Assembly: GCA_030390025.1 (NCBI GenBank)
Contig: CM059449.1
Location: 35,216,001-35,280,000 of the forward strand
DNA from: Squalus acanthias
Lineage: Eukaryota
DNA: 64,000 nucleotides
Reading direction: 5' to 3'
Shown: positions 18,261-25,800 of the stretch, one piece after another
Layout: each line of letters begins with the position of its first letter
How positions within the stretch are numbered: position 1 is the stretch's first letter
The notes under the pieces: model-generated
Databases searched by the model: none
Seen by the model: only the letters and a program-made list of their open reading frames with translations
Told to the model about the DNA's origin: nothing
Program-made: the position numbers and the translations under genes

Positions 18261-18776
18261 CCCGTTGAAAGAGTAAGGACTCCAGAATATTATTGACATC
18301 ATACGTTCCAAACAAAATATTTCGACATCTCCTTTACTGCAATCATGGTACAAGACTCCTGAAGCTGAGGATATTTAATTATAGAATCATGCAAGGCGTT
18401 TGATGGAATAAATGCGCATATTTTGATGGATTAGCTTTGTTTCTTAGTTACATCAAGAATGTACTCTATCTTCTTTAATCTATACTGAATATAATTTATA
18501 TTAAGGGGGCTCAATGCTACAGGTGAGTTTGAAGAACATTCAGATACACACAGAACGTGATATAGTCAGTTGTTTACAGCTGAGCAGACCCAGAGATGTG
18601 CAGAAATGTTAGATTTTTGGAAATATTAACAGACCTTGCACGGAAATAAAAGAGGAATGAACAGTTAAATGGCCAGTTTGAACATTCGAATGTCATTTGA
18701 GTAAAACCTCTCAAACGCTTAGCCATATGTGATCGGGAAATTTCATTAAGACATTCAATTGTTCCCCTGGCAGTGG

Positions 18777-18970
18777 TGACGTTAACTGTGCAGACCCGTC
18801 AGTCTGTGTAAAAATAAACATCCGATATTTTTTTATGGGGTTTTATTGTTCTTTGTCCACGACCTTGTGTGGAAATTCATCAAGGTCGTGGACAAAGATC
18901 AATAAAACCTCATAACAATTAACTGATTTTTATTTTTACACAGACTGACTGATCTGCGCGGTTATTGTCA
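18777..18970. repeat. Long inverted duplication (fold-back), arms ~90 bp
   Basis: Perfect 17-bp core CTTTGTCCACGACCTTG (18851-18867) / CAAGGTCGTGGACAAAG (18881-18897) around a 13-nt loop. Imperfect pairing extends outwards. Confidence 0.85.
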
Positions 18971-19830
18971 TAACTAGATGTGTTTTGAAGAGGACTGTCT
19001 AATTTGGAATGTTAATACACATGGATTAATAATAGGTGGATTTAACGTCTCTGGTTGGAGAACGATTAAACTGTCTTTTATTGGAAGGAGCCATATTTAT
19101 ATAGACATTAAAACAATGCCTCACAAACTGTGAAGTTTGTCGACCTCCCCCTTTGTTGAATTGAAGGGATTCATTGAACACATCACGTCTCAGGTTTTCG
19201 TGTCCTTAGTTCTGACTGGAGATCTGAAATACAGGACACAAACAACAGAGCGAGTAATGTTTAGACCAGTTCAGAAGCGGAAATGATATCTCTTACGGAA
19301 TTTATTGTAACTCGAGAGCGGGAGAGTGAGTGGCCCGCGTCTTTGGGGGAAGCAGTGCGCAGGGTCCGCCGATTTTAACGTCCTGGAATAATTAGTCCGC
19401 CGCCTGCGGTGTTACCTCCCGAAAACTGCCGGGAAGTCGGTGGCAAGCTACTGCCAGGACGGTAAAACCACGTGGCAGAAGGGTGCATCTTGGGACTTCA
19501 AGGAACCGCTTCCTAGCACAAGGTAAGCGGATGGAAGGAGAACGTGGTCAGGGAAGGGAGGAACCCAAGGTAGGGGAAATCCAAGGATTCCCTCTGCGCC
19601 TCAGAGGAGAATTCCTGCTCCTGCTGATCCACAGGTAAGTGCAACTTTCAGGTGCTTGGATAGCCTGCATTACCGGCCATCATAATCTCCTGCAGAAAAG
19701 AAATCTGTTGTATGTTACACAATCTTGCAAACACCCCAGTGACTCCAAACAGTTCCTGGATGATGCCTCAAGAAATCAGGGTCAGTAGACTGATTGTCAC
19801 AGAGCCAGAGTAGAAGAAGGAAACATCGGA

Positions 19831-22800
19831 AGATAGAAACATAGAAAAATAAGAGCAGGAGTAGGCCATTCGGCCCTTCGAGCCTGCTCCGCCATTCAAT
19901 ATGTTCATGGCTGATCCTTTATCTCAATACCATATTCCCGCTCTCTCCCCATACCCCTTGATGCCTTTGTGTCTAGAAATCTATCTATCTCCTTATATAT
20001 ATTCAGTGACTTCGCCACCACAGCCTTCTGTAGTAGAGAATTCCACAGGTTCGCCACCCTCTGAGTGAAGAAATTTCTCCTCATCTCAGTCCTAAATGCC
20101 CTACCCCTGATACTGAGACTGTGACACCTCGTTCTAGACAGCACAGCTAGGGGAAACATCCTCCCAGCATCCAGTCTGTCTAGACCTGTCAAAATGTTAG
20201 ACGTTTCAATGAGATCCGCTCTCATTCTTCTAAACTCTAGTTAATACAGGCCTAGTCGACCAATCTCTCCTCATTCGACAGTCCTGCCTTCCCAGGAATC
20301 AGTCTGGTGAACCTTCGCTGCACTCCCTCCATGGCAAGTGACATGAATGTTGTCATTCATGACTTAAGAAGTAATACTGGGCGGCCTGCTGGTGGCGCTG
20401 TCCAGGGAGAGTATAAATACTCGGGCATGGGTCCAGCTTGCTCAGGGACATTCTTCAACAGGAACTAGCGAGGGACACAACTGGACCTGCAGTTTGGAAA
20501 ACAGTTGATTAAAGCTTTGTTTAACACTTAGACCAAGTGCCTAGTAGTTTTCTTACGTCAATTTAATCAACTGGCCTGCTGCACGCTCTGAGTAGTTTTG
20601 GGAACAGCTGACTAGGACTCAAACGGCAGAAGGGAACCAGACGTAGTAATCAATCCATCATGGAGGTACTACTCCGACCCGCCCGTCTCGACCTGTACCC
20701 GAATTCACCAACAACTGCTAAGGTATGGAAACACTGATATCGTACCTTCAGCAACTTCCTCAGGGCATGTGGTAAGAATGTTCCTGATAAGTTAGAGATA
20801 CTTGCCAATTATGTATCCCCTTATGTGTTTGATTATATCGAAGACTGTGTAGACTATGACTCCGCTATCCGAATACTATAGCAACTATATGTTAAGGCCA
20901 CAAACGAAATATTTGCTCGGCATCTACTGGCCACAACTCGACAACAACCCGGGGTATCACTTGATGAATTCCTTCAAAAGCTTCGCAGGCTCAGCAAAGA
21001 TTGTAATCTCAGTCTGTCTTAGCTGAGCAGTACCAGGAGGAGTTAATTGGCGATTTTTTTATTAAAGGAATTGCGTCTCCCTTCATAAGCGAGCGTCTGA
21101 TGGAGAATAAAACCCTCGATTTACAAGCTGCCTATGACCAGGCATATTCTCTGGACTTGGCAAAAAAAATGCAGATGCCTATCTTTTACCACGTGCACGG
21201 ACTGCTGATATCACTTTTAGTGACTCCTCCGATAAGCCTCAGCCTAAGCCCTCACTGATGACGACTCTATCCTAGCTGATGACGACCCTACTCTAGCAGC
21301 ATCTTTGCAATCTAAAGGAACTGTTTCTTCTGTGGAGGTACATTTCATTATCGGAAATTTTGTCCTGCTCGTAATGCAATCTGCAATTATTGCAGTAAGA
21401 AAGGCCACTTCTCGAACGTATGTCAGTCAAGAGCATCTTCTACAGTTACAGCTGCTTCTGTAAAACTGCTCCTCCCCGAAGAGCCACTACTAATGTTACA
21501 GCTGTCATCTATAAAACTACTCCTCCCCCAAGAGCCACTACTAATGTTACAGCCTTCAAGGATAAATCAGCCCCTCCTCCCATCACAGCTGTCTTCCCCC
21601 AAAGCCTGCCCCATGCAGCCACGAAGGTTTCGGTAAATGGATACATTTTTAGTGCATTAATTGACTCATGCAGCTCTGACAGCTTCATCAGTGAGCAGGC
21701 TTTCAATAAGTTAAAACTCTGTATTTACCCCTCGGACAGGGAAATTGCAATACCTCTGACGACACTGACCACTAACTCCTCCGGCTTTTGTCTTGTCGAC
21801 CTTATTCTCAATGGCCATCCTTATTGCTCTACCCGGCTCGGGGTGCTCAAAAACCTAAGCAGTGATGTGCTCCTGAAAGTGGATTTCCAGAAACAACATA
21901 AAAGACTCACTTTCGAGTTTTGAGGATCAAAGCTGGAGCTTACTATTTGCAAAGTATCGTTTTGTGCACTTTCGGCGGCTTCGCTCGACGAGCCCTCCCT
22001 GTTTGCCAATCTTTCCCCCCGATGTAAGCCCATAGCCACTAAATCACGACGCTTCAGCCAAGATGACCTATCCTTTATCGAGGCAGAGATCTCTCGCCTT
22101 CTAGCTGACGGTATCATTGAACCATGTTCATCTTCCTGGCGGGCTCAAGTCGTCGTTGGTAAAAATCCTCTGTAGCAACACAAGAAACGTCTTTGCATCG
22201 ATTACTCGCAAACTGCTAACCAGTACACCGACCTGGATGCCTACCCACTACCACGCATCGATGACATGTTCAATAACCTTGCTAACTACAAGGTATTTTC
22301 AACTTTTGACTTAAAGAGCGCATACCAGCAAGTACCGTTAAAGGACTCTGACAAAAAGTATACGGCTTTTGTGGCCAATGGTCGGCTTTACCAGTTTCGT
22401 CGCCTTCCATTCGGGATCACCAATGGGGTGGCCGTCTTTCAACGGGCAATGGATAGCCTAGTCAAACAGGAGAATTTAACGGACACTTTTCCATATCTGG
22501 ATAATATCACCATTGCTGGTCATGACCAGAAGGAGCATGATGCCAACCTCCAGAAATTTCTTGACGTTCTCCGTCGTCGCAACTTAACCTTAAATGTGTC
22601 CAAATCTGTGAAATCAGTACCATCAGTCAACATCCTTGGCTACTGGGTGGACAAAGGTGTCATCGAACCGGATCCGGAGCGATTTTGTCCTCTTCAGAAG
22701 CTCCCTCCTCCTACGAATCTCAGCTCTCTTCGTCGGGCCCTTGGCATGTTCGATATTATGCGAAGTGGATACCTCACTTTTCCAACAAGATCCAGCCCCT

Positions 22801-25800
22801 GCTTCATGCGAAGTCATTTCCGTTGGAGGCGAGGGCTATTTCAGCTTTCGATCTCCTCAAGCAACAACTGGAAAAGGCCGCGCTTCATTCCATCGATGAA
22901 AATCTCCCTTTCGTGTTCGAGTGCGATGCATCAAAGGTGGCGATCTCAGCTACCTTGAATCGAGGCGGTCGACCTGTTGCATTTCTGTCTAGAACTTTGC
23001 AGGGTAGCGAGCTCCATTACCCTCCTGTCGAGAAGAAGGCTATGGCTATCATCGAAGCAGTACATAAATGGAGTCATTTTCTCGCTGGTCGGCATTTCAG
23101 CGCTCGGTGGCCTTTATGCTGGATAACCGGAAACCCACCAAAATCAAGACTGACAAAATACAGCTCTGGAGGATGGAATTGGCCGCCTTTGGCTACACCA
23201 TACAATATCGACCCGGCAAGGAGAATGTGGCCCCGGATACCCTCACGCTTGCATTCTCCTCTTCCATGTCAACTTCGACTCTTGCGGATCTTCATACTGA
23301 CTTATGCCATCCTGGCGTTTCCCGTATGTTGCACTCTGTGCGGTCTAAAAATCTCCCATTTTCTACGGAAGACATGAACAGAACATACTCCACTTGTAGA
23401 ATTTGCACGGAATTAAAACCGCAATTCTTCTGTCCGTCGGATGGCTCACTCATACACGCCACACAGCCTCTGCTGCGACTCAGCATTGATTTTAAAGGCC
23501 ATTGACTTCCTCAACGCGAAACACCTACCTGCTTACTATGGTGGACGATTATTCACGCTTTCCCTTTGCTTTCCCCTGTCCCAATATATTTACTTCCAAA
23601 GTGATGAAATGCCTCGATCAGGCCTTTTCCCTTTGCGGTACGGCCAATTTCATCCACTCTGATCGGGGACCCACCTTCATGTCAAGCAAACTTAAAAGTT
23701 ATCTTTCCCAACGGGGAATCGCCAGAAGTAAAACGACACCACATCATCCTATTGGAAATGGACAGGTTGAGAGATACAACGCTATCATTTGGAACGCTGT
23801 TCGTCTTGCACTGAGGTCACGCAATCTACCAGACCATCAGTGGGAAACTATGCTCCCCGATGCGTTGAATTCCATCAGGTCTCTTCTTTCTACATCCACC
23901 AATGTTACTCCTCATGAACGATTCTTCGGGTTCCAGCGTCGCTCCACTCATGGGACGTCTCTACCATCATGGTGGGCTGCTCCTGGCTCCATGCTGCTCC
24001 GAAGATTCGTCCGATCCTCCAAGAGTGATCCCCTCATCGACGAGGTGGAACAAATTGATGTCAATCCTACATACGCGTACGTGCGGGATCCTGATTCCCG
24101 GGAGTCCACAGTTTCACTTCGGGATCTGGCTCCCTGCCCAACCGGTCCCACGGACCCAATCGATAGAGAGACCTGTATTAATAATGCCAATACACCGCGC
24201 TCCTCCGAGGATGACTCTCTACCCGGGACATCAAGGGATCTGCCAGCTACTCCGCTGGATCAACCCGGGAAACAGAGCGCTCCCCGCAGGATTGCCACAC
24301 GGAGACAGGACGCCGGTCAATCACCAGCTACTGAGCAGGATGAAGCCAGCTCTGCGCCGGTATTGACCCGGACCTGGAGCCACCATCTCCCCAGTCCCCC
24401 TGAGGACGATCAAGGCGACACGGACTCTGCCAGCCCGCCGGTATGAACCAAACGAACCAGGGACCAAAACACTGTCCGAGGAGACTTGCCTTCCGGCCTC
24501 CAACGGAGACCCAAGCGACTGCGTATATTCTTAGTGTGTCTATTTCGGTAGAAGGAAGCCGCCGGACTTCCAATCTTTCAGGTGGGAATAATGACATGAA
24601 TCTTGTTATTCATGACTTATGAAGAAATACTGGGCGGCCTACTGGTGGCGCTGTCCAGGGAGAGTATAAATACTCGGGCATGGGCCCAGCTTGCTCAGGG
24701 ACATTCTTCAACAGGAACTATGGAGGGACTCAACTAGACCTCCATGTTGGGAAACAGTTGATTAAAGCTTTGTTTAACGCTTAGAGCGAGTGCCTAGTAG
24801 TTTTCTTACGTCAGCAAGTAGATCATTTCTTTAGGTAAGGAGATCAAAACTGCACACAGTACTCCAGGTGTGGTCTCACCAAGGCTCTGTATAACTGCAA
24901 TAAGACATCCTTGCTCCTGTACAAAAATCCTCTTGCAATGAAGGCCGTCATACCATTTGCCTTAGTAACTGCTTGCTGCACCTGCATGTTTGATTTCAGT
25001 AACTGGTGTACAAGGACACCCAAGTCCATCTGTACATCAACATTTCCCAATCTATCACCATTTACATAATACACTGCCTTTCTCTTTTTCCTACCGAAGT
25101 GGATAATTTCACAGTTATCCACGTTATACTGCATCTGCCATGTATTTTCCCACTCACTCAACTTGTCTAAATTGCCTTGAAGCCTCTCGCACCCTCCTCA
25201 TAACTCACAATCCCACCTAGTTTTGTGTCATCAGGAAACTTGGAAATATTACAGTTGGTTCCCTTATCCATATCATTGATGTATATTGTGAATAGCTGGG
25301 GCCAAAGCACTGATCCCTGCGGAACCCCCCTAGTCACCGCCTGCCACCCCGAAAAATACACATTTATTCCTACTCTTGGTTTCCTGTCTGTTAACCAATA
25401 TTCAATCCATGGCAGTTTATTTCCCGCAATCCCATGTGCTTTAATTTTCCACACTAACCTCTTATGTGGGGCTTTATAAAAGGTCTTCTGAAACTCAAAA
25501 TACACCACATCCACTGGTTCTCCCTTATCTATTCTACCAGTTTCATCCTCAAAGAACTCCAGTAGGTTTTTCAAACACGATTTCCCTTTCATAAATCCAT
25601 GTTGACTTTGTCTAATCCCGTTGATATTTTGTAAGTGTCCTTTATAATAGACTTTAGCATGTTCTCTACTGCTGATGTTAGGCTCACCAGTCTGTAGTTC
25701 CCTGTTTGCTCTTTCCCACCTTTTTTAAATAGCGTGGTTAAATTTTCCACCCTCTAATCTGCAGGAACTGTTCCATAATCTATAGAATTTTGGAAGATGA

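Follow-up and report, generated by a model that had tools for sequence, protein, structure and literature searches.

The Gypsy element within the window (the whole 64-kb stretch of Squalus acanthias DNA that was analysed) raises the question of how its reverse transcription is primed. A TGG-type tRNA site, as used by tRNA-primed Gypsy elements, is absent after its 5′ LTR, as the original prediction for this DNA had stated. One nucleotide beyond the LTR lies a 12-mer that is the exact reverse complement of a segment inside the LTR, here called the arm, which includes the ATTAAA poly(A) signal. This combination, a primer-binding site (PBS) complementary to the element's own LTR and no TGG-type tRNA site, is that of Tf1-type elements. 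The present analysis argues, at a probability of roughly 70%, for self-priming of the Tf1 type: the element's RNase H would cleave the RNA just ahead of the final A of ATTAAA, and the 5′ fragment so released would act as primer on the LTR complement that follows the 5′ LTR.

Anatomy of the element

The element occupies positions 20339-24813 of the window and is flanked on either side by a 5-bp target duplication (Table 1). Its two LTRs of 222 bp (TGAC...GTCA) differ by 17 mismatches and are 92% alike. The TG...CA LTRs, the target duplication and the polypurine tract are those of a Ty3/Gypsy LTR retrotransposon, and the domain order PR, RT, RNase H, IN is the Gypsy order. The closest solved structure to the RT of a natural open frame, taken from another copy, is that of Ty3, and an RNase H domain was found in the element. 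A chromodomain was detected in none of six proteins at E<=0.1 and in none of the precomputed domains of 120 listed homologs, which sets the element apart from the Tf1/sushi group. Downstream of the zinc knuckles, gag contains two tandem 51-bp copies (window 21457-21558), and its length there differs among copies.

The host site is a decayed LINE-like repeat (about 19830-20338 and 24814-25724) with RT-like frames on the minus strand, presumably of the CR1 type. A nested inverted repeat, with inner arms of 38 nt that are 92% alike, is located at 18772-18975.

Table 1. Features of the Gypsy element, in window coordinates
Feature	Position	Strand	Remarks
5′ target-site duplication GCAAG	20334-20338	.	
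5′ LTR, TG...CA, 222 bp	20339-20560	+	
TATA-like box	20412-20419	+	Kept in three LTR families of the Squalus acanthias genome; suggests a start near 20441
LTR arm, likely 3′ end of the self-primer	20502-20513	+	ATTAAA at 20508-20513
Probable RNA cut between two bases	20512-20513	+	Minus strong-stop DNA would end opposite 20513; from junctions of aberrant sister copies
Remaining R and U5	20514-20560	+	Stem loop; template of minus strong-stop DNA
One-base spacer (A)	20561-20561	+	With 20562 would supply the two extra bases of the U5 end, CA-AT
Putative PBS	20562-20573	+	Exact complement of 20502-20513
gag-PR-RT-RNase H-IN	20660-24548	+	Stops and frameshifts in the window copy; two zinc knuckles; no env or chromodomain found
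Polypurine tract	24580-24591	+	
3′ LTR	24592-24813	+	Arm copy at 24755-24766, no downstream PBS partner
3′ target-site duplication GCAAG	24814-24818	.	

Complementarity between LTR and PBS in the genome

The positions given for the 12-mer and its partner in the original prediction all hold, and the arm is identical in the 3′ LTR, as had been noted. In the window, the arm word occurs twice (once in each LTR) and the PBS word once. No tRNA gene was found in the 64-kb window, and the PBS has no match in Rfam. A genome-wide search for the pattern arm, gap, CA and PBS produced 3775 matches versus 71 for a reversed control; 6 of the 100 matches listed were unrelated AT-rich sequences. The same pattern revealed the sister families B, B2 and C, which have differing loops. 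The family of the window element comprises 3774 first-look candidate copies, 40 of which were scored. Of 30 copies taken for parsing, two remained unparsed (one of these, L025, has two PBS changes), and all 12 pairs are kept in 23 of the 28 parsed copies.

Pair 12 is C-G in the window family and A-T in family C. A one-pair compensated change within a family, present in both LTRs and the PBS, distinguishes L074 from L081 and L103; counting against coupled change, L080 has an arm that is altered in both LTRs and a PBS that is unchanged. A search for compensated double changes in family B had little power and returned 0 matches beside 23 single changes. When additional families of the same genome with different arm letters were sought, family B alone appeared among the matches listed (100 of 2327). 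The folding energy of 20440-20600 is ordinary (z -0.89), and the case for arm-PBS pairing is its position and covariation, not its stability. The complementarity is not due to chance.

Family B also contains a head-to-tail array with shared LTRs and a spacing of about 4247 bp (G000:C1:562284-575070; L044-L046, L226-L229), possibly an assembly collapse, and a duplicate of the initial 40 LTR bases in the 3′ untranslated region (L200:4347-4396).

Covariation among related families

Relatives were obtained with an alignment of 22 proteins, which led to 80 metagenome and 13 genome-bin loci. Anchoring on gag yielded 35 outside gag starts with at least 200 bases upstream; three more had too little sequence and were left out. 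An unanchored search gave a longest perfect inverted repeat of at least 11 bp for 27 of the 39 rows anchored on gag and for 4 of 468 shuffles. A perfect stem of at least 11 bp (length 11-18 bp) is present in 23 of the 35 outside rows and in all four own-genome families, and an anchored stem, in some cases with a mismatch or gap, in 30 of the 35. The stem is missing in the other five outside rows (L098, the second element of L122, L129, L137 and L138); L129 has kept a PBS-like word and has not kept the LTR ahead of it.

At 80% DNA identity, 34 stem rows form 22 clusters, here called families. Pairs 1-12 of these families comprise 264 cells, with 255 Watson-Crick pairs, one G-U pair and eight mismatches, a count that covers stem-bearing families only, in a register chosen by score; the inverted-repeat count (27/39) is the unbiased one. 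Across 20 aligned rows, two-sided changes occur at 9 of 13 pairs (38 cells), and covariation is 0.44 versus at most 0.09 in slid controls; relatedness inflates the shuffle control. The covariation of the 12-mer with its LTR partner, which the original prediction had proposed as a check, is found in relatives. RT identity among the stem families is 41-90%. In a FastTree phylogeny of the fetched relatives, these families are separated from two distant relatives that have TGG sites; the distant relatives L161, L163 and L165 carry TGG-type primer sites.

The geometry is constant across the stem families: the LTR ends in CA, followed by one spacer base and TT, and the arm ends in AA, followed mostly by (G/A)CCT, with a stem loop of 24-70 nt. 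The PBS words vary so much between families that no single tRNA or snRNA can match the whole set. The predicted tRNA-independent priming is supported by a complementarity that is kept and covaries in relatives and by the lack of an Rfam match for the PBS.

No relative was found among viral contigs, and a protein atlas yielded generic Gag clusters only, with no clade name. L153-L165 are eukaryotic LTR retrotransposons within prokaryotic genome bins, likely representing host contamination. The LTRs of L074, L079 and L115 have a common TTACCT word upstream of the arm, which is the reverse complement of a splice-donor-like motif.

Aberrant insertions and the probable site of the RNA cut

Failed reverse transcription is predicted to leave copies whose sequence continues beyond the PBS as the reverse complement of the LTR. 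Searches for such run-ons provided 3 and 21 matches. Four of the latter proved to be an ordinary variant of family C, and 20 copies remained. The search did not ask for a U5-R junction, and five of the 20 copies start with an inverted U5-R piece, which reads as folded-back minus strong-stop DNA. In four of these five fold-back copies, the inverted segment terminates at the T that faces the final A of ATTAAA; in the fifth, its end lies three bases into the arm. The five junctions are all different, and target duplications are present, four of them exact.

A second search addressed LTRs whose sequence changes right before GCTT. In family B/B2, 15 LTRs in nine insertions are joined between A and GCTT, the A always standing before the G; there are three kinds of upstream partner, and the two LTRs are alike in seven of the nine insertions. 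A control at ten downstream positions (downstream only, B2 left out, about 3947 LTRs) gave 10 matches: seven one-base insertions, two three-base deletions and one foreign junction. The window family contributed eight LTRs in seven insertions, namely four deletions ending between A and G and three losses of two bases within the A run, for which simple slippage may account. Counting against a cut as the source of these joins, short homologies (AGC, AGCTT) favour deletion junctions. L213 shows CA-AT and then a jump, as a single case with microhomology.

Since four of the five fold-back ends and the joins before GCTT coincide at one base, the template RNA likely begins at 20513, with the RNA cut Tf1-style at 20512/20513. 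Such a cut would be placed one pair inside the duplex and would result in a U5 end of CA-AT with two extra bases. Integrases expect two extra bases at the U5 end.

Five separate insertions of 241-252 bp (L179, L182, L184, L185 and L188) begin at a TG located 22 nt upstream of the arm end and terminate in an inverted U3. Each has its own target duplication, and four of these are exact. These insertions indicate that some DNA ends are located upstream of the cut, and a recurrent DNA end and a cryptic integrase site are candidate readings. L215 and L216 are solo-like LTR products in which an inverted U3 is joined to the base at the putative cut site.

The occurrence of fold-back and run-on products in the genome means that arm-PBS copying happens, and the complementarity could in principle arise passively from DNA folding back while the plus strand is made, with no role in priming. 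This is very improbable: such elements would have no primer site at all, and both the fixed geometry over RTs with identities down to 41% and the strong-stop end at 20513 would be left unexplained.

Folding and the poly(A) signal

AATAAA or ATTAAA is located within the arm in 13 of the 22 families, or in 15 when the PBS serves to read two damaged arms; the arm is without either hexamer in nine families as read, or seven by the PBS-side reading. Several families without a hexamer in the arm have one in the loop. When the RNA is folded from 20441, the arm-PBS pairing probability is 0.78-1.0; from 20502, it drops to 0.35-0.44. The hexamer in the 3′ LTR is predicted to be unpaired at 0.54-0.98. 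A hairpin just after the arm is frequent in the folds and reaches p<0.05 in few rows.

Retroviral poly(A) hairpins and 5′-LTR poly(A) suppression likewise involve a stem that contains the hexamer. In the window lineage, by contrast, the partner is outside the LTR and the stem occupies the primer site. Because the PBS partner is outside the LTR, the stem can form solely at the 5′ end, and the hexamer would lie in a duplex in the 5′ leader and stay largely unpaired in the 3′ LTR. The stem might merely hide the 5′ poly(A) signal, with an outside RNA or a tRNA fragment serving as primer, a reading that the hexamer in most arms would suit. It is nevertheless improbable, as each stem-bearing family has the start of its stem precisely at the primer position, stem letters differ between families, seven families keep the stem without a hexamer, G-U pairs are nearly absent (1/264), DNA ends are found at the duplex end, and Rfam provides no match. 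The hiding of the poly(A) signal by a 5′-specific hairpin, as raised in the original prediction, is plausible by folding and is not a constant feature, and the seven families lacking the hexamer suggest that such masking may be at most a secondary, side benefit of the stem.

Possible origin of the primer

The original prediction had placed a TATA box at ~20414; a TATA-like box, TATAAATA, is present, with its first base at 20412. The point that the arm lies ~60 nt downstream of the start predicted from this box, near 20441, also stands. Eight contig alignments revealed neither a transcript start or end nor a poly(A) tail. The distance from the box to the arm end is 102-103 nt in families A and C and 85 nt in family B. 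A box at a fixed place was seen only in these three own-genome families and not in outside families. In families A, B and C, the box lies within a small inverted repeat (window 20409-20422; L050 LTR). The conserved box suggests a primer of ~55-70 nt, rather than the 11 nt of Tf1, and such a primer from a TATA-driven start is somewhat favoured over a piece of 11-13 nt. A G at -10 in 20 of the 22 families, with A/T at -11, fits an initiator at the arm; the pairing extends further, pairs 12 and 13 still being Watson-Crick in 19 and 18 of the 22 families, respectively.

One of the 20 run-ons stops 56 nt from the arm end, which is 29 nt after the family-B box, with two extra bases and no microhomology. 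Of the other 19, 14 reach the end of U3, four pass the polypurine tract and one stops near -117. In total, 18 of 20 traverse U3 with no visible break, reaching its end or extending beyond the polypurine tract, for up to 1624 nt. This sample is biased toward the U3 end, because only products with two integrase ends survive. Run-ons beyond the predicted start fit either a 5′ primer with one jump or a 3′-LTR primer without a jump.

In the latter scheme, the arm copy of the 3′ LTR would serve as primer: a genomic RNA cleaved behind the arm would anneal by its new 3′ end to a PBS, either its own or that of a co-packaged RNA, and the template would have its 5′ end at, or cut to, 20513. The 18 unbroken run-ons would then require no additional jump, and one strand of the five insertions starting 22 nt before the arm end would correspond to U3-arm fused to minus strong-stop DNA. 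However, a second event would be needed for the template 5′ end to match the duplex end, and the 3′ R required for the first jump would be lost unless two RNAs cooperate. In addition, the 5′ arm is just 48 nt from the PBS, with the high pairing probability predicted from 20441, and one run-on stops at the TATA-predicted start. The use of the RNA 3′ end, which the original prediction had raised as a different priming mode, survives as an unlikely minority reading; the evidence favours Tf1-type chemistry with cleavage at the 3′ border of the paired segment. Over all readings, a long 5′ primer is tentatively preferred and a short 5′ primer is rather doubtful; the other possibilities together appear as unlikely as the 3′ primer.

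Comparison with known self-priming systems

Double zinc knuckles, as present in the element, are presumably Mag-like. Self-priming is reportedly proven in fission-yeast Tf1. The first 11 bases of Tf1 RNA pair with the PBS, and the RNA is cut between bases 11 and 12 (PMC7175516). Tf1 and Tf2 of Schizosaccharomyces pombe, Tj1 of S. japonicus and Tosmo1-3 have, like the window element, a PBS that adjoins the 5′ LTR and is complementary to ~11 LTR bases, and in the Tf1 group RNase H cuts at the duplex end (PMC7175516, PMC4600332, PMC5341516), the same place that the junctions suggest here. Roughly half of the Tf1 cDNA retains a PBS copy, and single-stranded PBS ends have been linked to tandem copies in which neighbours share an LTR (PMC11042837); the copying of the primer into DNA and the tandem copies with a common LTR appear to be paralleled in the window lineage.

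Tf1/sushi elements are described as chromoviruses with a pretzel of three duplexes, and Tf1 self-primers are located at the start site (bioRxiv 10.1101/2022.12.06.519325). Unlike these, the window lineage has no chromodomain, and its duplex of 11-18 bp ends in a poly(A) hexamer in most families; the loop, unlike that of Tf1, is short (24-70 nt), and in the own-genome families the arm is probably away from the RNA 5′ end. In a crude test that short stems could escape, a post-PBS duplex equivalent to the third duplex of the pretzel reached p<0.1 in one of 22 families, and the loop fold had a mean z of -0.44.

Plant Tcn1 chromoviruses and TAR (Houba, Osr-1) Copia elements are predicted self-primers, with at least 10 LTR-complementary bases 0-5 nt after the 5′ LTR (PMC6317226). 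They follow the same sequence rule as the window lineage in different lineages and hosts, and these predictions imply that self-priming arose outside Tf1/sushi. The survey, in its accessible portions, names no animal non-chromovirus Gypsy self-primer.

Named relatives of the element come from crustaceans, a soft coral, a mussel and a nematode. Like the Mag lineage (A, B and C clades), the window lineage has short LTRs, 165-234 bp in the pairs found, compared with a mean of 174 in the Mag C training set (PMC3601003). The possible affinity to Mag is a loose one, based on the likeness of the LTRs and the zinc knuckles. The accessible portions of PMC3601003, PMC2774666, PMC8220671, PMC3587641, PMC6238403, PMC13524379 and PMC2864245 hold no report of self-priming in Mag elements. 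Searches of the open literature likewise brought up no report for the window lineage, and an earlier mention may exist in subscription papers or Repbase reports.

Proposed mechanism

The arm and the PBS are complementary and covary across the 22 families. According to folding, they would pair in the 5′ leader only and close a loop of 48 nt. The element's own RNase H, its domain being present, is predicted to cut at 20512/20513, and the fossil junctions suggest a template RNA that starts at 20513. The primer would then end in ...AUUAA-OH, and synthesis would copy T20562, A20561, U5 and the remaining R, resulting in a strong-stop DNA of ~50 nt with the CA-AT end for integrase. This DNA would be transferred to the part of the 3′ R that separates the hexamer from the poly(A) site, and the 3′ LTR would restore the arm. 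If the primer is sometimes retained and copied into the plus strand, arm changes could pass to the PBS, which would account for the almost purely Watson-Crick covariation.

The complementarity is real and lineage-wide, and judged from sequence comparison it most likely serves Tf1-type self-priming in a non-chromovirus animal Gypsy lineage. A more specific proposal is put forward tentatively, with somewhat less than even confidence: this widespread lineage would self-prime on its own terms, from a long capped leader or a 3′ LTR cut inside the hexamer, with one 12-bp stem that primes, sets the CA-AT end and masks the 5′ poly(A) signal, and with failed insertions that map the cut to a single base.

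Implications for the lineage

The new aspect is that aberrant insertions preserve what read as reverse-transcription intermediates. This fossil-junction approach leads to a base-level prediction, a cut at 20512/20513 and a strong-stop DNA of about 50 nt. Self-priming would also explain why PBS-based annotation misses these elements, and it bears on the order in which hairpin and tRNA priming originated, a question raised in PMC3601003. So far, self-priming has been predicted in the chromovirus kin of Tf1 and in one plant Copia lineage (PMC6317226). If the proposal is true, this animal lineage, which is large, lies outside the chromoviruses and has thousands of copies in the Squalus acanthias genome, would represent a further and probably independent case of self-priming.
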